Source of the DNA: Sedimentisphaerales bacterium
GTDB lineage: Bacteria; Planctomycetota; Phycisphaerae; Sedimentisphaerales; Anaerobacaceae
Reading direction: 5' to 3'
DNA length: 64,000 bases
Assembly: GCA_963708075.1 (NCBI GenBank)
Contig: OY970194.1
Span: forward strand, 5,696,001 to 5,760,000
Shown here: one piece after another, positions 24,045 to 35,993 of the stretch
How the letters are laid out: each line of letters starts with the position of its first letter
How positions within the stretch are numbered: position 1 is the stretch's first letter
Notes under the pieces: generated by a model
Told to the model about the DNA's origin: nothing
Databases searched by the model: none
What the model saw: the letters and a program-made list of their open reading frames with translations, nothing else
Made by a program: the position numbers and the translations under genes

Positions 24045-25310
24045 CTATGCGAATTCCACCGGATAGGCCGAGGGATTCCGGACGGCTTTTACCGCGTCGG
24101 GCAGATGGGCCAGTTCGTTCGCGAGTCGCTGCTCGATCACAGGCGTCGGCTCGGCGGATTCGAAGGGTCTCAGCAGGTCGTCGGCGTTTGCTCGAAAAGG
24201 GAAGACGACATCTTTTTCGTAGACTCTGTCGCCGATTCGCGTGACGGTCTTGCGGCCGGGGAGGGTGGCTTTGTCGGGCGAAGTCTTGTGCAGTGGCCTG
24301 TCGCCATACTGGGCGATCTTGTACACGATGCCGATAGCGGGGGCGTGCTGGGAGACGGTGAAGCGCGTTCCGACCCCGAAGCCGTCGATCTCAGCGCCGG
24401 CGGCCAGCAGGTCGGCGATCCGGAATTCGTCGAGGTCGCCGCTGGCGAAGATCTTCAGGGACTCCAATCCCTCCTTTTTGAAGCGCTCTCGGGCGAATTT
24501 GCTCAGGTCGAGCAAGTCCCCGCTGTCAAGCCGGATACCGCGTATCTTGATGCCTCTGCCGGCGAAGTCCCTGGCCACGCGGGCGGCGGTCATGATTCCT
24601 TCGTGGCTGTCGTAGGTATCGACTAACAGGATGGTCCTTTCGCCGTAGATCCCGGCGAAGTCGCGGAAGGCCTGTTCCTCGGATTCGTGCGCCTCGATGA
24701 ACGAGTGTGCCATCGTGCCGGACGGAGGCATCGAGAGGAGCCTGGCGGCAAAGAGGTTGCTCGTGGCGGAGAATCCTGCGATCTGGCCGCCGCGGGCGGC
24801 CCGAATTGCAGAGATCGGGCCCTGGCAGCGACGTAACCCGAAATCGATCACGGGCAGACCCCTGGCGGCAAGCATGAGCCTGGCGCCCAATGCCGCCTCG
24901 ATGATGGAGAAGCCCAGGATGTTCAGGATGTAGGTTTCAAGCAGTTGCGCGTGAAGGATGGGACCGCTCACCTCCATGATCGGCTCGTTCGCGAAGAAGA
25001 CCGTGCCCTCCGGCAGAGCCCGGACGTTCACATCCAGCTCGAGAGCCGAGAGGTATTCCAGGAAGTCGCTTGCGAATATCTCCGTGGAGCGCAGGTAGTC
25101 GATGTCCTCGGCGCCGAAGCGGAACTCTCGCAGATAGCTCTCCACCTCCGGCAGGCCGGCCATGACGAAGAATCCCCAATGCTCGGGAAGGTGCCGGACG
25201 AAGACCTCGAAGTACGCGGTCTCATTCATGGCCTTGCGGAAGTAGGCCTGCGCCATTGTCAACTCGTAGAGGTCTGTAAACAGCGCGGGCGTCGTTTTGA
25301 TCAGCCACAT
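24045..25310 (-). CDS. pncB: nicotinate phosphoribosyltransferase
   Basis: LFTDLYELTM, DFGLRR, GTMAHS, LLVDTYD, IRLDSGD. Confidence 0.95.
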   Translation of the reverse strand: MWLIKTTPALFTDLYELTMAQAYFRKAMNETAYFEVFVRHLPEHWGFFVMAGLPEVESYLREFRFGAEDIDYLRSTEIFASDFLEYLSALELDVNVRALPEGTVFFANEPIMEVSGPILHAQLLETYILNILGFSIIEAALGARLMLAARGLPVIDFGLRRCQGPISAIRAARGGQIAGFSATSNLFAARLLSMPPSGTMAHSFIEAHESEEQAFRDFAGIYGERTILLVDTYDSHEGIMTAARVARDFAGRGIKIRGIRLDSGDLLDLSKFARERFKKEGLESLKIFASGDLDEFRIADLLAAGAEIDGFGVGTRFTVSQHAPAIGIVYKIAQYGDRPLHKTSPDKATLPGRKTVTRIGDRVYEKDVVFPFRANADDLLRPFESAEPTPVIEQRLANELAHLPDAVKAVRNPSAYPVEFA

Positions 25311-25945
25311 GGCACCATCTCTCGCAACTGACTCGATTCGACGACGTCCACTCCCAGGCTCTGCAGGTCGTCGAGCACCTGTTCGTCCGGCCTGATGCCC
25401 ATGCCTTTCGTGGCGTCTCTTACCACCAATAGTTCGACGCCGGGCCATCGCGCCAGCTTTCTCAAAGTGTCTTCGACGCAGACATCGAGCGCGACCCCAA
25501 ACACAATGACCCGTCCCGGGTTGGCCGCCTCAAGGAGCCGGATCGTGTTTGGGCTGGAAAAGGCGCTGATTGCCTCCTTGCGGATCACAACGTGAAACTG
25601 ATCCGGCTGCACCAACTCCTCCAACTCGCCGGGATTTCTCGGCTCCAGACCGACGTAGTCGATGGGCAACGTGCCCAGATAGCCCACCCTTGCCGCTCCA
25701 GGCGTGCCGGCCATGCAGTGCGGCGGAAATGTCTTCTCGAAATCAGGAGTTTCGGAGATTTCCGGATTGGTCATGCTGTGCCAGTCCTGTGAGGCGATGA
25801 TGGAGCAGCCGTGGTCGAGCGCCATCGCGCGAACGTCGCTGACCGCGGGGATGATCTGGTCGGCCCCTTCCATGTAGAGCTTGCCGTCCGGCATCATGAA
25901 GTCATACTGCGTGTCGGCATCCCAGAATATTGTCCTCTTTTCCAT
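25301..25945 (-). CDS. pncA: nicotinamidase/isochorismatase-family cysteine hydrolase
   Basis: DTQYDFM, QDWH, FPPHC, GVALDVCV; overlaps pncB start. Confidence 0.85.
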   Translation of the reverse strand: MEKRTIFWDADTQYDFMMPDGKLYMEGADQIIPAVSDVRAMALDHGCSIIASQDWHSMTNPEISETPDFEKTFPPHCMAGTPGAARVGYLGTLPIDYVGLEPRNPGELEELVQPDQFHVVIRKEAISAFSSPNTIRLLEAANPGRVIVFGVALDVCVEDTLRKLARWPGVELLVVRDATKGMGIRPDEQVLDDLQSLGVDVVESSQLREMVPCG

Positions 25946-26186: not shown

Positions 26187-26311
26187 GTGAAGAGTTACAG
26201 GAAAGAGCTGTGGTTCGATATCCAGCAGAGACGGGAATTCGTCAATATCACGCCGCAGGTGCAGCAGTGCCTGCAGGAAAGCGGGATCAAGGAGGGCTTT
26301 GTGCTGTGCAA
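26187..26311 (+). pseudogene. yjbQ: 5' fragment of host yjbQ (UPF0047), interrupted by the integrated element
   Basis: GTG after [49 protein letters not shown]; joins in frame to NAMHITASV at 35023. Confidence 0.92.
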
Positions 26312-27978
26312 TCACAAGCAGATTTAGTTACTGCACTGACAAGCTCCTTCTGCTTCGGCAGGGGCCAGCCAGCACCGTGCTCGTAGTCTTCTGCCATAGC
26401 GGATTTCAGCTTTTCGCCCCACCGGATCAGACCAGATTCCTCAATCAGGTGGCCATGTATGCTGAACGTCCAGTTTCCTTCCCCATCCCACCGGATATAG
26501 ACGCCCATCCGCTCGCCGTCGGCCATCTTGCCGCTGAACACGGTCTCGACCAATGCCCGCCGCTCCTCATAGGTCATTTTGCTGAGGGGCTTGTGTGCGG
26601 CCAGCCGCTTCCCGGTGCTTATCCGGGCCATGAGGCGTTGGAACTCGGTGGCAACCTTCTTGGATGCCGCCTCGACCCGTTGCGGGCTCGGCAGGGTGCC
26701 GAGATAGTCTGTTAGGGTGATTTGCTCCTCGTGCAGCCGTTGTTCGCGGTCCTTCGTTTCTAACAGAAGCTTGTCAGCCATAGCCTCATCCAAGGTGCCC
26801 TTGAGAACGCGACGGCCAAGCGCCTCCTTGCCTTCCTCGATCTTCTTCAACTCAGCGTCGATGCGGTTAAGTTTCTGTCTGTAGGCTTTGACCTTTTCAA
26901 CATCGCCGGATGCCGCCGAGATCGCACGTTGGATGGCGAGCGGATTGCCGAAGGTCCCGAACAGATGGAGTATCACCAGTTCCTCAACCTCGTCTGCCGG
27001 AATCCACGTCTTGTTAGGCTGGTCGCATGCCTTTACACGTCTTGTATGGGCGTGCCGATAGTATCGCTGTTCATGCTTGCGGTGGTTGGTCTGGCCGAAC
27101 ATGGCATACCCACAGTGCTCGCAGAAGATCATCCGCGACAACAAATAGGTGTGCTTGCTATGGCCATGTGTATAAGTCTTGTTGGCTTGTGTCTTTTGCC
27201 TGATCGCCTGTATGGTTGCCTCTGGAAGCAGGCGGGGGATTTGCGTCACTACGACTTCAGGCGGCCTGTTTACCGGTCGGAAGGTCTGGACCCATCCATC
27301 GCCACACCGCTGAGTCAGCGTCTTCCACAAGCTGGCGTTGTTCACCCCCAGTTCATCCGCCAATGCCTGCATCGACTCGCCAGCAAGGTACCGCTTTGCT
27401 ATGCCCGCGATGATCGCCTGCTTGTCGTTGTCAATTCCCCATTGCTCCGTTTCCTTGTTCCACGTCCGCCCCCAAGGCCGCTTGCCGCACGCGGAGCATC
27501 CACGCTTCGCTCTCTTGATGCGAGAGGCAAGCGACCTCTGTTTTTGGCTGCGAGCCTGAAATGCCCCAAACACCGTGCCCATGTCGATAAACAGCCGGTG
27601 TTCAGGGCAGTTTAGATCGTATTCCGTGGCACCGATGAAGAACTTGATGCCATGCTCAACAAACAGGTCCAGACCTTGATGTGATTTGGCGTTGTCTCGG
27701 CTCCATCGGTCACCCTTGTCTACGATGACGGCATCGAACCGCCCTCTGCCTGCGTCAGCCAAGAGCCGGTCAATCTCCTTCTTTTCATAGCCTGCGGTCG
27801 CGTGCTCCTGCCCGCCATACCATTCGATGATCTGTCCGCCAAGCAATTCAACGGCTCCTTCGATCTGCTCCTTCTGGACATGTAGGCTCTCGCCCTTCTT
27901 GTCCTGCCCCTCGGTAGATACTCGCCGCAACGCACCGAATCTGCATGGTGCTGCTGCCTGCCCCTGCTGCTTGGCCAT
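26287..27978 (-). CDS. large serine recombinase (integrase)
   Basis: RRVSTEGQ catalytic Ser, DRWSR, recombinase domain, [12 protein letters not shown] zinc ribbon, coiled coil; 3' end crosses attL. Confidence 0.93.
26308..26337. other. attL (core GCAA plus element arm)
   Basis: GCAA-TCACAAGCAGATTTA-GTTACTGCACT; arm mirrors the attR arm. Confidence 0.85.
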
Positions 27979-28244
27979 ACGCCTGACCTTTCTGCTTGAC
28001 CGTTCAAGAGTAGGGGGCGGCATGATTGCCGGTCAAGCGGAGCAATCCGGCTCAGGGGATCAATCCCAAGCCGCTTGCCGCCCCAACCTAATTGCACTAT
28101 CTTGCTCACTGCTGTGGGACCCACACGCAGTTTTGTAGATATATTGGTTTCCTGTCGCCTGGGTGCAGAAGACAGTGACATTTCCCGCTTCTTAATGGCT
28201 CCTGAGTTGAAAGACCATGCATGACCATGTACTCAACTTTCCCC

Positions 28245-29054
28245 CTACTCTCTGGATGGCATTAAAGGCGGATTCTCGTATCCGTTCTCGCCAAAAGATT
28301 CCCTGAAAAACTCTGACAAAAATGTGCGGTGCCTTGCTGCTCCGCCCCGACCTTCCTGCAATCTGCGATTTCGGTTCTTGTTTTCACCCCTGCCCTCCAT
28401 CGCCTGCACTATCCTCGTCGTCGTACAGTCCAGCCAGCGCCCCTGCATGTCCTCGAAGGCGACATCGGCGTACATATTGGCTGTCGTCACTGGACTGGCA
28501 TGGCCCAACTGTTTCTGTACGAGCCGGAGGTTGCCGCACTTCCTGAGCAAATGCGTAGCCAGCGTGTGCCTCGCGCTGTGGATTGACAGGTCGTCCCGTA
28601 GGCCCGCAAGAGCAACAGCCCTCTTCCATGCCTGCTGTGCGCCTCGGTTTGTCAGCGGCCCCCTCTGGCCTACGAACAAAGGCCCATCTGCATCCGTCAG
28701 TCCCTTGTGGTTCGCCTTGTCCATACCCTTGAGCCTATCAGCACGCCATTGCAGATAGGCCCGCAAATGCTGCACGCACTGTTTGCCGTCGATAGCCACT
28801 GTCTCCACGTCCCTCGCCCTCTTCTTTAAGCGGACGACCCTCAAGGCCCCCATCCGCAAATCAACGTCCTGCACTTTCAGGGCGACGAGTTCGCTGACCC
28901 GTAGGCCCGTTGACATCGCCAAGTCCACGACCGCCCACGCCAACACGCCGTTGACGCGACCATATCGGAGGTCGGTTATGGCTCTGGCCTCTGTCATCGT
29001 TCGCAGCTTTCTGACTTCGTCCTTACCCATGTACTTGGCTCTATCAACACTCAT
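28245..29054 (-). CDS. short tyrosine recombinase (catalytic domain only); possible frameshift near 28440, natural stop possibly 28384
   Basis: TGLRVSEL, HSARH, QLGH, TTANMY; one extra G in the GGGG run would give ...MQGALAGLYDDEDSAGDGGQG*. Confidence 0.9.
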   Translation of the reverse strand: MSVDRAKYMGKDEVRKLRTMTEARAITDLRYGRVNGVLAWAVVDLAMSTGLRVSELVALKVQDVDLRMGALRVVRLKKRARDVETVAIDGKQCVQHLRAYLQWRADRLKGMDKANHKGLTDADGPLFVGQRGPLTNRGAQQAWKRAVALAGLRDDLSIHSARHTLATHLLRKCGNLRLVQKQLGHASPVTTANMYADVAFEDMQGRWLDCTTTRIVQAMEGRGENKNRNRRLQEGRGGAARHRTFLSEFFRESFGENGYENPPLMPSRE

Positions 29055-29141
29055 CTGTGTTCTCCTGTGCGCTAAACTCAGTACCCTACATAGTATACAC
29101 GGTATATTATACGGCTATGTTTGTTCTGTAGCAATAGAAAG

Positions 29142-29169
29142 TCGGCACAATATAGTAATTATGTGCTGA
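29142..29169. other. candidate 28-bp tyrosine-recombinase (dif-like) site
   Basis: TCGGCACAATA-TAGTAA-TTATGTGCTGA, 11-6-11 architecture with inverted arms, 88 bp upstream of the recombinase start. Confidence 0.5.
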
Positions 29170-29875
29170 GATTTTTATAACCCCCCGAAAACAAGGGACT
29201 CACGTAAGCAAAAGCTATGACCCTTATGTTTTACACGCGTAGAGCGGTGCTATCGCTGGCGTGACCACAGTCTAACCCTGTGGCAAGTCCGGCTCGAGCA
29301 CCACGCGTAGCTCTGGCAGTGCAGAGGCGTCATCGTCACGCACTGGCTTTCACATACCCATTATTATCGTGACGGTTTTAGGCCTATTTTGCGGCTCCGA
29401 CCATTTTTCGGACAACAAACAAGGGGGTCGTGACATATGCCTGATGTAAGTTCCAATGGGGGCTGAACTTATGGTTGGCTGCCACGCGAAATATTTTTAG
29501 GATGTGCTGCGCGGGGGGGGGTGGACGAGTGGAGAGGCTACCCGGCTTTATGACGGCCCTCTACGCTTTGCGTTCCAGCCCAAGCGTCCTTGCCGGGCCC
29601 GTCATGCTGAAATCTGCCGCCCCTGTCCCCCCACAGGTTCTCAAAAAAATTCAGACGCAAATTTCTGGCGACCCTCTACACCGCCCCTCTCGTTTTGAAT
29701 CTGCAATTCGACCCCTCCCGGTAGGGGTCCAGAGGCCCGGAGATGCTTCTGAGCTTGTGGATAACGTGAGGCGAGATTGTTCTCGGTGGCAGGAGGGTAG
29801 AGGTGCTGCGGACGGGTACGTGCTTAGCGGGGAAACTACCTGGTCAGGTGGGCCTCTGTTGTGGCTACGATCAGA

Positions 29876-30574
29876 TTAGAGCTTCTTTTGATCTTCCTGC
29901 TCGCGAATCGAATGCTCCAAGGTTTCCATATCATCTCGTTTATACTCCATCCGGTGCGTTACTTTGAAGTTATCGCCGTGCAACAGGTGTGTGATCGTAA
30001 CTTGCCCTGCTCTCCATTGCGAATGAACCATTAAGTGGCCAGCCTCGACCGCCCTACCCCACTTATCGGGGCGATCTTTGAAAAGATCCTCCTTCCACAC
30101 TTTTTCAGTTGTGGCGGGTTTACCGTACTTCTTGGACAACAGGGCATCTATCTGATCGAAGTCCTCGAAAAAAAGGTTACTACTTACATGCTCCTCTGCA
30201 AACTGGTACTGACCGCGAACAAAGCGTCCTCCGACCAGCTTGAAAACACAATGAGCCTTCAGGCTACCCACTGTGTCTGCAAAGGCGACTAAGGCCTCCC
30301 CGTCAAAAAGAGGCTTTTCTTTGATCTGCCGTCTGACTTCGTCCGCTGTTGCTCCCCAGGGGACGCCACGGAAAAGGACCTCGTTGGGGTCCTTCGTTCT
30401 TTTGTATTCCCATGAACCATCTTTATAGAGCATGACACGTTGGCCGGATAAGGTAATCGCTTCTTCTGCCAATTCTTTGCGTGGTTGTGAGCCCATACCT
30501 CCTGCCACACAAACCATCACGCATACAAGCATCGCCATATGCCTCATCGTCATTCTCCTCTCTTCCACGTTCAT
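29876..30574 (-). CDS. secreted hypothetical protein (FRG-x-PWG motif)
   Basis: Hydrophobic N-terminus; VMLYKDGSWEY; FRGVPWGAT; start uncertain. Confidence 0.75.
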   Translation of the reverse strand: MNVEERRMTMRHMAMLVCVMVCVAGGMGSQPRKELAEEAITLSGQRVMLYKDGSWEYKRTKDPNEVLFRGVPWGATADEVRRQIKEKPLFDGEALVAFADTVGSLKAHCVFKLVGGRFVRGQYQFAEEHVSSNLFFEDFDQIDALLSKKYGKPATTEKVWKEDLFKDRPDKWGRAVEAGHLMVHSQWRAGQVTITHLLHGDNFKVTHRMEYKRDDMETLEHSIREQEDQKKL

Positions 30575-30639
30575 GTCTTTCTCCCTTCCAATCATAGCCG
30601 TCTCGTACCACTGCCGGTCCTTCCTATTGCCTCTTGCAC

Positions 30640-31332
30640 TCAGAAGTCCTTATCTGCTGCTTTCGCCCTTTCTGCATCAGCACTTTTCTTCTCGTTGTAC
30701 ATTGGTATGTAGCTCATCAATAGGAGGCCTACTTCACTGATCTCTTTGTATGTCAAAACCATCAAAACGTCTTCGGGACCACTAGCTAAACGCCTAGGTC
30801 CACCCCAGGCCCAATCCTCGATAAACGCATTTCGTTGAACCCCCGTGCCATAACGAGCAAACAAAGCATCCTTCAAATACCCATAATTCGATGATCCTTC
30901 TAATTCAACCCAGATGCCGCACAGACGACCCTGATAACAGACATAGGACAAGCTCATTAGTTGGGCATCGCCAATAGATAGCTTATCATTCATACGTGCA
31001 TAGAATTGGTTCCTGGCGTCTTCGGTGGTCAAGACCATATCCTTCATGTCTGCGATATTTGTTCCCCACGGCAACCCTCTAAATCCAGCCCATTTGTCCA
31101 GTTCGGGTTGAGGCGGGGTTGGCGGAGCCTGCTCCGGAGGTGTCGTGACTATGGTCGGCGTTTCTTCTTTCTGTGAGACGGTTGAGGAAACAGATACTTG
31201 GTTATCCTCTTGCTGTTCCTGTTTCTCGGCAGCCGGAGCAGACTCAGGGCGACTCGCGACTGGTGCTGTCGGTTTGTCACTACAGCCAACAAGCACTAAC
31301 GCCATCATCGTGGACAGTAGTGCCATTCTCAT
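30640..31332 (-). CDS. lipoprotein (FRG-x-PWG motif), related to the downstream gene
   Basis: Lipobox LVGC; Pro/Gln linker; FRGLPWGTN. Confidence 0.75.
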   Translation of the reverse strand: MRMALLSTMMALVLVGCSDKPTAPVASRPESAPAAEKQEQQEDNQVSVSSTVSQKEETPTIVTTPPEQAPPTPPQPELDKWAGFRGLPWGTNIADMKDMVLTTEDARNQFYARMNDKLSIGDAQLMSLSYVCYQGRLCGIWVELEGSSNYGYLKDALFARYGTGVQRNAFIEDWAWGGPRRLASGPEDVLMVLTYKEISEVGLLLMSYIPMYNEKKSADAERAKAADKDF

Positions 31333-31507
31333 GTCCTTCTCCCTTCTCATTAGCGGTCATGCCGAAATCTTTGGGTACGGGCCTCTTCACGGTTTCTCCT
31401 GCCTCCTAACGTCCAGCCTGCCAACACACAGTATCAGTATAGCAAATGACGTCTCCGGACACAAGCCCATCCAGCAGTATGTCGCTCATTGGGTTTTGTC
31501 TGCTCTT

Positions 31508-31581
31508 TGTCGCGCGCGACAAGGCCGCTGTCCCACGCGACAATCGATCTTCTGCCGGGGACCCTACTGCCACAGGGGTCC
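31508..31581 (+). repeat. copy 1 of an imperfect direct repeat with two TGTC-N6-GACA palindromes
   Basis: 33/41 identity with 32129 over the first 41 bp; CAGGGGTCC at the same offset (+65) in both copies. Confidence 0.75.
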
Positions 31582-31780
31582 ACCCGCGTCTCGGCGGGTT
31601 TCGGGGCATCTCATCCAATTGTCCGATGTCTGACAAACTCAATAGCGATGTTGCGGGAAGAAAATGTTCTGTTCTCGCGAGTTCCTGCTCGGACCTCCCG
31701 GCGGCACACCGTTAGAGTCGCTGTCAGTAGCCGATTGCAGTTCGGCACGTACGATGAAACCTCTTTCAAGGAGTAAAGCA

Positions 31781-32020
31781 ATGGCAGCGAAGAAGAACAC
31801 GACGGCGGGCACCGGGAAGCAGAAGGCAGCCGCGAAGCTGGATGCGTTTGGCAGCCGGGTGGGCAGTAAGGCGGCGAAGGTAAATGCGATGCTGGGCAAG
31901 GAGCCTGTCACGATGAAGCAAATCAGGGAGAAGGTGGGTCATAACTATTACAATCACCTCGGCGACCTCATCAAGGCGGGGAAGGTCAAGAAGACCGACG
32001 ATGGATACGTGATCGCTTAA
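31781..32020 (+). CDS. small basic protein, probable winged-helix DNA-binding
   Basis: AAGGAG RBS; Lys/Ala-rich N-terminus; VTMKQIREKVGHNYYNHLGDLIKAGKVKKTDDGY; followed by a terminator. Confidence 0.75.
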   Translation: MAAKKNTTAGTGKQKAAAKLDAFGSRVGSKAAKVNAMLGKEPVTMKQIREKVGHNYYNHLGDLIKAGKVKKTDDGYVIA

Positions 32021-32034
32021 ACTCACCACAGTAC

Positions 32035-32062
32035 ACAAAGGCCGCAGTGTTGCGGCCTTTGT
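32035..32062 (+). terminator. intrinsic terminator
   Basis: ACAAAGGCCGCA-GTGT-TGCGGCCTTTGT. Confidence 0.8.
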
Positions 32063-32128
32063 CATTCCATCCCCCCACCTGCTATCCACACACATAACTG
32101 TGCAATCACGCTGCCCAATACAGCCCCG

Positions 32129-32202
32129 TGTCGCACGTGACAAGGCCCCTGTCAGCCCCGACAAACGATTATTTCCCCCAACTCCTATCCCAGCAGGGGT
32201 CC
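32129..32202 (+). repeat. copy 2 of the TGTC-N6-GACA direct repeat
   Basis: tgtcgcacgtgacaaggcccctgtcagccccgacaaacgat...caggggtcc. Confidence 0.75.
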
Positions 32203-32323
32203 CGCGCTTGTCGCCCGAATTTTCTTGCGGTCCCATTCCGAGAGTGGGATTATGTGGCACTAGCGGCTCGTGTTGTGATTGGAGACTCGATAACAGAAAT
32301 CGAACACTGGGAAGGAGAGATTC

Positions 32324-33028
32324 ATGCACATGGCAAGATTGTCTGTTCTGTTGGTGGCGGCTTTAATGCTTCTGTGTGGGTGTGCTTCTGTTTTGGTGAG
32401 ATACAATTACTCCCCACAGCCGACAGAAACAAGTGAGCCGCCATTGAATACTGTTGTGACTGCGTATGTAGGGGACAATCTGGTTCGACAGGGGCAGTAC
32501 ACGGAACACGATGCAATCTATCTGCGGCAGGACGTGAGAGTAGGAATAATAGGAGAAGTCATGATCATGCGAGGGTACTATCTAAAGGTGGGAGAGGATG
32601 CCACATCGGAGTTCTATCGTACGGCCGGTGGTTCAGATTCAGGACAGATAGTCGTAGCTGCGGCCGCGGTACCGGTTTGTGCACTGCGTGTAGATAGGCG
32701 GGATGGCAGACTCTGTGCTGTGGCGGTAAAGGGGGGGGAAGACTGCACGGCTAAGGCAGACTATGAGAGGAAGAAATATCCGGTGACAGGTGCCGCTGAC
32801 TTCCAGCAGACTCTTATTTACAGTGGAAAGGTGGGGGACAAGATCAACATCGGGTACCGAGAGTTCTCAGGTAGTCGGGCGAGACCTGCTTTCAACAATG
32901 AAGTGGAGTATGACCTATCGCAGTCAAAGACCATTGGGTACAAGGGAGCCCGGATTGAAGTCATTGAAGCCACTAACGAGTACATCAAGTACAAGGTTAT
33001 TTCGAACTTCAACAAAGCACAGTATTAA
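32324..33028 (+). CDS. hypothetical lipoprotein
   Basis: AAGGAG RBS; lipobox LCGC; FQQTLIYSGKVGDKINIGYREF...EVEYDL. Confidence 0.8.
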   Translation: MHMARLSVLLVAALMLLCGCASVLVRYNYSPQPTETSEPPLNTVVTAYVGDNLVRQGQYTEHDAIYLRQDVRVGIIGEVMIMRGYYLKVGEDATSEFYRTAGGSDSGQIVVAAAAVPVCALRVDRRDGRLCAVAVKGGEDCTAKADYERKKYPVTGAADFQQTLIYSGKVGDKINIGYREFSGSRARPAFNNEVEYDLSQSKTIGYKGARIEVIEATNEYIKYKVISNFNKAQY

Positions 33029-33217
33029 GGACACATAGCCAGGATGGGGTCTGGCAGGGGTGAGCAGGTTTTCGGTAGGTGTCGCCGGTAGCTGTAAAGG
33101 TGTTGTGCCTACCGGTGATGCAGCGTTGTACGAGCGCGTGCATTGCTGGGAAACCCCTTGATTTACAGTGTTTCGGTACAACATGCGACTTGGGCCGCGA
33201 GGAAAAACTTTACACCC

Positions 33218-34000
33218 TCAACCGCACTCTTTCAGCCAGTTCGCAACTGTGGTGTGCGATATGCCGCAACCGTCCGGCGACATATCCCTCAGCCGGTCTC
33301 GGATTTCCCGGCAGCTCAGTCCCGCATCATGCAGCCGACATGCCTCTGGCTGCAATCTCGCCTTCCGCCGTTTGCACCGACCCGGTTTCCTATCCCCGCC
33401 GCCTTTCCGCCCCTTGAACTGCTGCGCCCAGCGTGTTCGATAACTCTGCACCTCTCGGGGCGTCAGATCAGGAAACAGGTATGTGAGCAAGGGTACACCG
33501 CCGGTCAGTTCCTTCAGCTTACAGAACTCGGCCTCCGTTGGCGTTGCATCCGGGTTCGTCTCGGAATTGTAGTCCGCGTTCCTGACGAACCGGTCGGTGC
33601 ACGGTGCCAGCACAGCCGTATGTCTGCCGGTTTGGGCCTCGTGCTTTCTGGCACACTCAACGGCAGCTATCAGGCGGCCCCTGTTCTCATTGAGAACCCA
33701 GCCGGATATCACGTCGCGGAATACGGCAACGATCCGTATGCCCAGCTTTTTGCATGCCCTCCGTAGGACCCACTCGCAGACCGCCAGATTGCCCTTCCTC
33801 TCCTGCCAGCCGCTGCTGACCCGAACGTAGAGGACTACAGCCAAGTCAGGATGCTTCTTGTGGTAGCCTGCCAAACGGCGTACGAACCTGCCGATATCTT
33901 CGCAGGATTCCAGTTCGATTGGCTTGGGGCAAGGGCGTGCCCTTGCTATCCGTTCTGCCCGTCGGCGTCTTTCTCTGCTCCGCACTGCAATGTCCTTCAC
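33218..34000 (-). CDS. small serine recombinase (resolvase/invertase-like) with C-terminal HTH
   Basis: VLYVRVSSGWQ, FRDVISG, R-x-x-L, DRFVR; GLSCREIRDRL...ISHTTVANWL; start approximate. Confidence 0.8.
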   Translation of the reverse strand: MKDIAVRSRERRRRAERIARARPCPKPIELESCEDIGRFVRRLAGYHKKHPDLAVVLYVRVSSGWQERKGNLAVCEWVLRRACKKLGIRIVAVFRDVISGWVLNENRGRLIAAVECARKHEAQTGRHTAVLAPCTDRFVRNADYNSETNPDATPTEAEFCKLKELTGGVPLLTYLFPDLTPREVQSYRTRWAQQFKGRKGGGDRKPGRCKRRKARLQPEACRLHDAGLSCREIRDRLRDMSPDGCGISHTTVANWLKECG

Positions 34001-34219
34001 TCTCTGCTCATAGTTCAAGAAACAGGCAGGGCCAGTGGCCGAGCAGAGAGAAGCCACTATCGGTTGCGAACCGTGGCCCCGCCTATAGATTCACGTAGTT
34101 ACACTGTCATTATCGTACGGCATCAGAGCCCTAAGACCGGGAATCGCATGTTTCTTGTATCAAGAAAAGGGCGACCCCGCCCAACTACCCTCTGAGGGGA
34201 AATAATCGATTCTGTGAGC

Positions 34220-34516
34220 TTAAACACGCGATTTCTCGCGGTGCACGGGCAAGGGTTTGGCCCTCTCAGACCCCTTCTGGAAGGGTCTGGCCGCGTAGAG
34301 CGGACAAGCGGGGTCGGTGCACAGCGTTACCTCCTGCCTGACCCATCCGCAGCACTCCAAGCACTGCGCTTTGATCGCCGCAGCTTTGCTCCCGTTGACG
34401 GCTCGCTCGTATGTCCTGCGGCACTTCGGCGGCATCTGGGCGAGGCGTTCCTCGATCTGCTGCTGGCGGTTAGGGCTTGTGGGCGCAGCCTGCTTTTTGA
34501 CTTGCGTACTCTGCAT
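34220..34516 (-). CDS. small Cys-rich phage-like protein (putative Zn-binding)
   Basis: [20 protein letters not shown]...[17 protein letters not shown]. Confidence 0.7.
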
Positions 34517-34538
34517 GAATGTGTTCTCCTTTTCAGCT

Positions 34539-34955
34539 ATGAAATCCCTGACAAAAGAAATCTGGATGAACGTGCCCCAACGCAGGGCAATCGTATCCAT
34601 TCACAACGAGGTGGAGAGGCTGGTTGGCGAAAGCAGCGTCCGGGATGGTCTGGTACTGGTGAATGCGATGCACATCACGGCCAGTGTCTTCATCAACGAT
34701 GACGAACCCGGCTTGCACCACGACTACGAGGTATGGTTGGAAAAGCTCGCCCCGGAGAAGCCATATAGCCAGTACGAGCACAATGGATCTGAAGATAACG
34801 CTGATGCCCACCTGAAACGACAGGTCATGGGCCGCGAGGTTGTAATCGCCATCACGGACGGCAAGCTGCACTTGGGGCCGTGGGAGCACATCTTCTACTT
34901 TGAGTTCGATGGCAACCGACGGAAACGCATCCTGGTCAAGATAATTGGCGAATAG
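34539..34955 (+). CDS. yjbQ: complete element-borne yjbQ (UPF0047 / secondary thiamine-phosphate synthase family)
   Basis: Full-length 138 aa; [45 protein letters not shown]. Confidence 0.93.
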
Positions 34956-34994
34956 CATCGATGTCTCTCGCTTCTCTTGTTCCGGACAGGGTAA

Positions 34995-35026
34995 AGTGCA
35001 ATGAGTAACAATTTTGTACGTAGCAA
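34995..35026. other. attR (element arm plus GCAA core)
   Basis: AGTGCAATGAGTAAC-AATTTTGTACGTA-GCAA; AGTAAC lies 15 bp from the central AA, mirroring GTTACT at attL. Confidence 0.85.
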
Positions 35027-35318
35027 CGCCATGCACATCACGGCCAGCGTCTTTATCAACGATGATGAGCAGGGCCTGCACCAGGACTTTGAGACCTGGC
35101 TCGAAAAGCTCGCCCCGGAAAAACCTTACAGCCAGTACCGGCACAACACCTATGAGGACAACGCGGATGCTCACCTGAAGCGCACTGTCATGGGTCGGGA
35201 GGTGGTCGTCGCCGTGACCGGCGGCAAGCTCGACTTCGGTCCGTGGGAGCAGATCTTTTACGGCGAATTCGACGGCAAACGAAGCAAACGTGTCCTGGTC
35301 AAGATCATCGGTGAATAG
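35023..35318 (+). pseudogene. yjbQ: 3' fragment of host yjbQ
   Basis: [18 protein letters not shown]...DNADAHLKR...[14 protein letters not shown]; complements the 26187-26311 fragment. Confidence 0.92.
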
Positions 35319-35330
35319 GCGGTCGCTCGC

Positions 35331-35993
35331 ATGGCATTACTCCTTTTTCTCCTGAAAGTCGTGGGGATATCCCTGTCCGGAGCGTTGGCTCCCGGCCCGG
35401 TCACCGCCGCCGCCATCGGCATGGGATCGGGCGATCGGTTTGCCGGCGCGCTCATGGCAGTTGGCCACGGCATCGTGGAGTTTCCGCTCATGGTGCTGCT
35501 TCTTGCAGGCGTCGGCCGGCTGCTGAAACTCTCTTACGTGAAGATTGTCATCGGTCTTGCCGGTGGCGGCTTTTTGATCTTCCTGGCAGTTCAAATGTTC
35601 CAAGGGCTTGGAAGCTCCGGCGCTGAGACAGCGCAGACGACAGGGGGCAACCCGCTTGCAGCCGGTATCCTCCTGTCGGCGGGCAATCCCTATTTTCTCG
35701 TGTGGTGGGCCACGGTGGGCTTGACCCTGATTACGACGTCCAAGAGTAATTTTGGGCCCGGGGCTTTCGGGCTCATGGCCGTGGCCCACTGGTCGTGCGA
35801 TCTTGTCTGGCTCACCGCCCTGTCCTGGGCCAGTTTCAAGGGCTCGACGCTCCTGGGACCGGCGGGACAGCGTATCGTGCTCGCCATCTGTGCGGCGGCG
35901 ATGCTCGGCTTTGGGCTGTACTTCATCCTGCTGCAGGGGATCACATTGAAACGCACGAACAGGACTCTCGCCAAGCCGCTCTCGGGGCAATAA
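35331..35993 (+). CDS. LysE-family translocator
   Basis: SGALAPGP, GHGIVE, NPYFLVWW. Confidence 0.85.
   Translation: MALLLFLLKVVGISLSGALAPGPVTAAAIGMGSGDRFAGALMAVGHGIVEFPLMVLLLAGVGRLLKLSYVKIVIGLAGGGFLIFLAVQMFQGLGSSGAETAQTTGGNPLAAGILLSAGNPYFLVWWATVGLTLITTSKSNFGPGAFGLMAVAHWSCDLVWLTALSWASFKGSTLLGPAGQRIVLAICAAAMLGFGLYFILLQGITLKRTNRTLAKPLSGQ

Follow-up and report, generated by a model that had tools for sequence, protein, structure and literature searches.

Why would an integrative element that breaks a conserved gene carry a complete copy of that same gene? The question is raised by a 64,000-nucleotide stretch of DNA from a Sedimentisphaerales bacterium (assembly GCA_963708075.1, contig OY970194.1, positions 5,696,001 to 5,760,000; hereafter the window), in which an element encoding a large serine integrase splits the host yjbQ and holds, just inside its right end, a full-length yjbQ of its own. 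Carriage of the copy is real, recurrent and selected. The reading that we favour, and which taken as a whole we consider probable, is that the element is a protein-gene counterpart of tRNA-dependent lysogeny, the host gene being broken on integration and a whole spare brought along; a link from such elements to in-place gene replacement is a bolder proposal and is unproven.

The insert is bounded by a duplicated GCAA, the two copies lying 8,715 bp apart (Table 1). When it is excised in silico, an in-frame yjbQ of 138 codons results, which runs from the GTG at 26187 to the stop at 35318 and is cut between Cys41 and Asn42; the insert length, core and coordinates given in a preliminary description of the locus all hold. 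Comparison with relatives narrowed the crossover to the AA within the Asn42 codon. AA is the sole shared core in G061 and G225, and it is found at both junctions in 11 of 11 elements scored. The element is single-copy in the host genome, which besides it has only distant yjbQ paralogues, and its GC content is 54.8%, with 60.2% and 59.5% in the flanks. Relatives in the host genus have an intact yjbQ in the order pncA, yjbQ, lysE; in the window lysE is probably co-transcribed with yjbQ. In the window neither junction rebuilds the gene: the 5′ piece meets a stop, and the 3′ piece is without codons 1–41. An in-frame ATG at 35001 could open a 105-residue remnant, which we rejected as a replacement because codons 1–41 are missing.

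The same arrangement was found elsewhere in the order. A sample of 301 genomes of the host order was searched with the integrase, and five genomes hold it (G000, G783, G920, G893 and G793; G783 and G061 are two labels for one genome). All five have a split yjbQ, a full copy, a divergent resolvase gene and a spacer of 60–69 nt. With four further genomes of the order sharing this layout, misassembly of the window is unlikely, although the carried copy and the host remnant form a 294-bp direct repeat, 78% identical, at the right junction, and the assembly contains one probable homopolymer error. The possibility of misassembled junctions had been raised in the preliminary description; split gene and carried copy recur in independent assemblies. 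Contigs of a public run (X1), which may be the source sample, cover host and element at no less than 99%, and no listed piece crosses attL or attR. Joints seen in another run (X2) were assigned to yjbQ of other organisms.

The direct repeat might also be taken for a local duplication of the host gene. We distinguish two groups of yjbQ alleles, type A, to which the host gene of the window belongs, and type B, to which the carried gene belongs. The carried protein, 138 residues long and encoded just inside attR, as reported earlier, with its gene ending 69 nt from the border, is identical to the rejoined host YjbQ at 95 of 138 positions (69%, as at the nucleotide level), and its best solved relative is TM0723 (1vmj). 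In trees, the host yjbQ groups with its genus (support 82/93) and the carried gene falls in the type B clade (100/98). Forcing the two together was rejected by the approximately unbiased (AU) test (p=5.4e-7; 30 of 81 rows were used, and the groups were tested after a first FastTree had been seen). By this phylogeny the carried gene is a xenologue, an allele of another lineage, and not a local duplicate; of the earlier phrase 'whole paralogue', the wholeness stands and the paralogy does not. Given the AU test and the independent assemblies, we regard duplication or artefact as exceedingly improbable.

The carried gene has also been kept intact. The window copy retains all 56 columns that are invariant among 54 native yjbQ genes, and in the 15 carried copies entered in this comparison (18 were known after the 301-genome search), all of them intact, 9 changes occur in 840 cells at these columns. 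The five copies of the order are 83–92% identical to each other and 68–73% identical to their own type A hosts; in G793, where the split gene is already type B, the carried copy is 87% identical to it. Among the five, the proportion of nonsynonymous differences (pN) is 0.05–0.13 against a synonymous proportion (pS) of 0.66–1.0, with synonymous sites near saturation. These patterns show long-term purifying selection on the carried yjbQ, in line with the selection for YjbQ function that the preliminary description had proposed.

The best PDB match of a profile of the integrase family is the TP901-1 integrase. The resolvase-type catalytic domain (PF00239) is found in 9 of 10 family members and the zinc ribbon (PF13408) in all 10, while PF07508, which we take to be the recombinase domain of large serine integrases, has no Pfam match in any of the 10 at E 0.1; the NCBIfam models XisF and CcrB align across the region below their cut-offs. 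The integrase gene crosses the core, its stop lying outside the element in host DNA. It has 578 codons when integrated and 600 in the circle, in which form the tail would be 22 residues longer and overlap the end of the carried yjbQ, and tails like this free-form tail are found in most relatives scored. Integration clips the integrase tail, which probably switches the enzyme down. At one locus in our collection (L185:3-935) the integrase tail resembles the free-form motif, and a homologue of the element's 98-residue gene comes directly after it; this locus may be an excised circle. The attP holds no replacement piece of yjbQ in register with the core; elements in dusA reportedly have a partial replacement in attP.

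Two of the 18 carried copies (G063 and L167) have Ser in place of Asn42 (AA to AG), a change seen in 0 of 54 native genes and 0 of 120 nearest homologues. The excess gives a Fisher p of 0.045 on the first 15 copies and would be weaker on 18. Ser42 removes the AA core, as expected if such copies escape their own integrase, and we take this as a hint of self-immunity. Locus L167 (171-308 and 11578-11877) lies outside the set scored for the core: its junctions share no AA, its split gene is type B-like, and its carried copy, with Ser42, is of another type.

Integrase relatives were gathered from genomes (11 loci), metagenomes (the best 80 of 124 confirmed), viral contigs and kin searches. The resulting 97 loci gave 95 with a match of at least 160 residues and 80 lineages at 95% identity; 4 of these were dropped (<32% identity), 24 were unscorable because of contig ends, and 52 were scored for the presence of a yjbQ fragment at the integrase end of the locus. 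By this score 33 of the 52 lineages target yjbQ, cutting it at codon 42 nearly throughout and in both orientations, in hosts that record titles place in Planctomycetota, Verrucomicrobiota and Neomarinimicrobiota. Serine-integrase elements that target yjbQ do form a family, as suggested earlier from the window alone, with yjbQ as a common but not exclusive target. The other 19 lineages, among them the nearest within the host genus (G007), lie mostly in or next to other genes, which by eye from the translations we take to be a Ser/Thr kinase, a ComEC-like and a ComM-like protein, a ZIP transporter and others. In viral contigs the integrase as query gave no match, the integrase alignment gave one and yjbQ gave one (L197); among cultured phages only integrases about 25% identical were seen.

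Of the 33 targeting lineages, 10 have a full-length yjbQ, in 7 within the locus itself and in 3 from a genome search, and 2 more are probable cases cut by contig ends. Among the 19 lineages with other targets it was seen in one, L180, where the copy adjoins a yjbQ attR remnant, and among the 24 unscorable lineages in 4. As general cargo it is rare, with 3 of 50,697 phage records and 37 of 72,556 plasmids. The copy lies just inside an att site, 2–9 nt before the integrase start, or further upstream and mostly divergent. Across the family the carried copies are polyphyletic and mixed with native genes, which points to repeated capture.

Some of these positions would suit a YjbQ that serves the element itself, for instance as a partner or regulator of recombination or in the free stage, rather than replacing the host protein. 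In four lineages (L126, L140, L141 and L160/L197) the copy ends 2–9 nt before the integrase start, so that a role for the element may be considered there; in L140 and L197 another recombinase gene precedes it in an operon-like arrangement, and the five elements of the order place it between the resolvase gene and attP. However, 18 of the 19 sister lineages with other targets carry no yjbQ, the position and orientation of the copy vary, and the copies are ordinary host-type alleles rather than a specialised clade. We judge a service to the element rather improbable.

On the favoured reading, by contrast with a service to the element, the large serine integrase of a small, non-autonomous element recombines at the AA of the Asn42 codon, as the sequence shows, and the host yjbQ is broken because attP holds no replacement half. 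A whole yjbQ was acquired earlier from another host lineage and long kept intact, as its xenology, the purifying selection and the same module in five genomes show. While the element is integrated, this copy most likely replaces the lost host protein and lowers the cost of using a conserved site. Many family members do without a copy because YjbQ is useful but not essential, and different members seem to have captured different yjbQ alleles repeatedly. Expression of the copy, host benefit, self-immunity, the tail-clipping switch and domestication are parts of this scheme that we infer.

Several observations weigh against it. Unlike the host gene, the carried yjbQ is not preceded by a Shine-Dalgarno-like sequence, and a promoter scan gave no sigma-70 match; the end of a terminator-like hairpin lies 46 nt upstream of it, and the start of a divergently oriented gene 22 nt. 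The relative G022, however, keeps the same kind of leader on its only yjbQ copy. The function of YjbQ is unclear (10.64898/2026.06.26.734693), and a rationale based on its weak thiamine-phosphate synthase activity (PMC3020362) was rejected, since the host has ThiE and does not need this side activity. A general immunity of carried copies to the integrase is not supported, 16 of 18 keeping the AA. The integrase lineages are related and their counts are not independent. Among 11 elements that are whole on one contig, 5 have a copy (the window, G408, G893, L140 and L167) and 6 have none (G064, G068, G225, L124, L145 and L186), and the complete genome G225 has no intact gene of this yjbQ subfamily. 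A strict need for the copy is contradicted by these 6; at the level of the family the sequences make carriage optional and not a requirement for stable integration.

Both host halves and the integrase are intact, which also fits excision on demand. The host gene would then be restored in the manner of skin or comK elements, and the copy would be a captured passenger, picked up by recombination at the locus and retained for a general dosage benefit or through its linkage with attP and with the tail of the integrase. The 6 whole elements without a copy and the polyphyly of the carried copies suit such a history, as does the G408 copy, which is sister to its own host gene (100/99), and the integrase tail encoded in the spacer explains part of the conservation of the module. 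Linkage is nevertheless an insufficient explanation, because the 138-codon frame and the invariant residues have been kept through synonymous saturation. No empty-site or circle joint is listed in run X1, which at its thin cover (depth 2–5) says little. We consider a mere passenger unlikely.

That an element should bring a whole spare has precedents. In tRNA-dependent lysogeny of actinobacteriophages (Fionnbharth and others), a whole tRNA gene is supplied, and complementation was shown experimentally and is required (PMC10865867). The yjbQ element resembles these phages in its short common core, in a target rebuilt at neither attL nor attR, and in carrying a whole gene of the same function. 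It differs in that they use tyrosine integrases and an essential tRNA gene, whereas here a serine integrase meets a non-essential protein gene and carriage is optional. It appears to work like tRNA-dependent lysogeny without being a member, because the integrase is a serine integrase, the target a protein gene and the copy not required. The preliminary description had held that elements usually supply the displaced piece or excise; the rule is indeed stated, attP usually holding a replacement piece of the target (PMC10111431), but a whole copy is precedented for tRNA genes and has been suggested for prophage late genes (PMC10865867, PMC10111431). Partial replacement, as in icd and tRNA genes, likewise preserves the target function through the element, with one gene end in register with the core, whereas the whole yjbQ is separate from attP (PMC10111431). 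Phage-inducible chromosomal islands (PICIs) embedded in a helper have an attP without replacement, and their captured late genes were suggested as an intact backup; unlike the present element they use tyrosine integrases and target a helper prophage gene, the backup is only suggested, and the text available describes no allele replacement (PMC10111431).

Serine integrases are also known to disrupt host genes, as in streptococcal elements of the integrative and conjugative (ICEs) and the integrative and mobilizable kind (IMEs) in rumA or mutT, A118 in comK, and skin (PMC4701971, PMC5704250). These share with the window the very short direct repeat and the disrupted gene; they differ in that the parts of these papers available to us describe no carried copy, excision on demand being the proposed remedy. 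Serine-integrase IMEs are described there as disrupting dispensable genes (PMC5704250). The rumA elements, like Mx8, have the att site inside the 3′ end of the integrase gene, with an altered C-terminus (PMC4701971), as found here. In Vibrio cholerae an insertion hotspot of islands is named yjbQ (10.1101/2024.07.25.605194), the available text not stating the integrase type, the position in the gene or a carried copy. Neither serine integrases that target yjbQ nor a carried yjbQ came up in the literature searched, which included the text and 8 supplementary files of PMC10083194 and mostly excluded subscription papers; bioRxiv supplements may list yjbQ as a target.

If elements bring foreign alleles of yjbQ, such alleles might come to stay. 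Type B is the sole gene of the subfamily in many genomes, where it is 79–89% identical to the carried copy, against at most 76% for type A, and the two types occupy the same syntenic locus. Among 23 relatives in the host genus, three of them fragmentary, one (G022) has type B between pncA and lysE, and monophyly of host-genus yjbQ was rejected (p=5e-18). Of the 12 genomes of genus g6, 8 have type A only, 2 have type B only, G783 has a split A and a carried B, and G793, which is 8% contaminated, has B intact, split and carried; monophyly of 8 g6 rows was rejected (p=1.3e-5). In G022 the 70 nt upstream of yjbQ match the leader of the window element, that is, the 5′ end of the 98-residue mobile-element gene, with a score of 58.5, the best of 80 comparisons (maximum 37 in 2,000 shuffles), and the DNA downstream is host-like. 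Such a scar is what decay of an element would leave, and it suggests element-driven replacement in place: the copy would recombine with the adjacent 294-bp host remnant, and loss of the rest would leave the foreign allele in the host's place.

We tentatively propose, as a possibility that falls somewhat short of an even chance, that these elements are vectors of in-place gene replacement, which deliver a foreign allele beside a remnant and by their decay leave it as the sole copy in the native operon, where later elements could split it again. Weighing against this, we found no element scar upstream of the native type B genes in G028, G034 and G040, upstream similarity to the carried copy at a score of at least 40 is seen in G022 only, and the intact type B gene of G793 has a clean host upstream region. 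The same 70 nt could also have arisen if the element captured its copy from a host like G022. If true, the proposal would account for a syntenic locus that within a genus holds now type A and now type B, and xenologous displacement in situ would gain a concrete mechanism; 'gene displacement in situ' is a term reportedly in print already.

Other genes targeted by the integrase family may follow the logic of replacement as well. At L182 (1-690 and 6453-6947) a ZIP/ZupT-like transporter gene is split by a sister integrase. Upstream of this integrase, at a distance of 4.2 kb, is a second zupT-like copy that has 89% identity over 470 nt and continues past the split point to the contig end; it would be a full spare or else a 5′ replacement of the classical kind. 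Only L182 showed such a copy; in 16 other-target or unplaced loci, with 0–11 kb visible, tblastx found no spare of the element's own target. A sub-clade of integrases (L055:7886-9562, L125 and L152) lies in Ser/Thr kinase genes of sigma-factor/kinase pairs, and in G007 the integration in a kinase gene is 18 kb from an intact yjbQ.

Further observations were made around the yjbQ locus itself. In G893 (C25:11328-11459; L274:5329-5463) a long unrelated ORF, 1.8 kb ahead of the present attL, is fused to a second yjbQ 5′ piece with the same end codon, which may be left over from a previous integration. In G068 (L009:13042-13335) the host 3′ remnant occurs a second time, 1.4 kb beyond attR, and this extra copy is absent from the matching metagenome contig L116. 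Four loci of the host genus (L014, L031, L038 and L040) have internal deletions in pncA and pncB beside yjbQ.

Besides the serine integrase and yjbQ, the element encodes an XerC-like domain, a resolvase-like gene and five small or envelope-type proteins (Table 1). No packaging or capsid genes were found among its ORFs with Pfam, NCBIfam and PHROG, and no relaxase or conjugation match with Pfam and NCBIfam; relatives of the element carry terminase or head genes. No directionality factor was recognised. Homologues of the 98-residue gene adjoin integrases in G007, L140 and L185. At window position 28439 one X1 contig has an extra C in a short homopolymer, which makes the tail of the tyrosine recombinase shorter and acidic; the C-terminus encoded in the window is probably lengthened by a one-nucleotide slip there, a possible assembly error.

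Table 1. Features of the yjbQ-splitting element and its host flanks in window coordinates
Feature	Position	Strand	Matches and remarks
pncA-like isochorismatase/nicotinamidase, host, left neighbour outside the element	25301..25945	-	PF00857; in genus relatives, too, lies upstream of an intact yjbQ
Host yjbQ 5′ piece, codons 1–41, type A	26187..26309	+	read-through ends a few codons inside the element
Large serine integrase, ORF of 578 aa	26287..28023	-	PF00239 (E 4e-16), PF13408; likely start 27978; reads through attL
attL core GCAA	26308..26311	.	crossover AA at 26310-26311; duplicate at 35023-35026
XerC-like tyrosine recombinase catalytic domain	28245..29054	-	PF00589
Protein of 239 aa	29876..30595	-	no Pfam, NCBIfam or PHROG match; homologue elsewhere in genome (36%)
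Probable lipoprotein, 236 aa	30640..31350	-	weak N-terminal lipoprotein-type matches
Small basic protein	31664..32020	+	homologues adjoin related integrases (L118, L139)
Phage-family protein	32324..33028	+	phrog_1353, E 6e-67
Resolvase-like small serine recombinase	33218..34057	-	PF00239 below cut-off; divergent from carried yjbQ in all five elements of the order
Cys-rich mobile-element protein, 98 aa	34220..34516	-	Atlas clusters 50-82% viral, score 0.93; start 22 nt from carried yjbQ start
Element-borne full-length yjbQ (UPF0047), type B, 138 aa	34539..34955	+	PF01894 126 bits, TIGR00149 110 bits, above cut-offs
Spacer of 69 nt, attP arm	34956..35024	.	minus strand encodes the free-form integrase tail; 49/69 nt identical to G061 spacer
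attR core GCAA	35023..35026	.	AA at 35025-35026
Host yjbQ 3′ piece, codons 42–138	35025..35318	+	78% nt identity to matching part of carried copy
Host LysE-type translocator, outside the element	35331..35993	+	PF01810; 12 nt past yjbQ stop; comes after intact yjbQ in relatives

Breaking a target and bringing a complete spare, a strategy shown for tRNA genes, would by this finding reach a protein gene and serine integrases too, as a trait that recurs in the family. The finding also shows YjbQ, which is widely conserved but has no clear function, to be kept by selection, and the elements with and without a copy are natural complemented and knock-out pairs for finding that function. The integrases themselves are a diverse set with one defined target codon. 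If the replacement proposal is true, a distant allele can take over from a housekeeping gene within the same operon, an exchange that would mislead gene trees.

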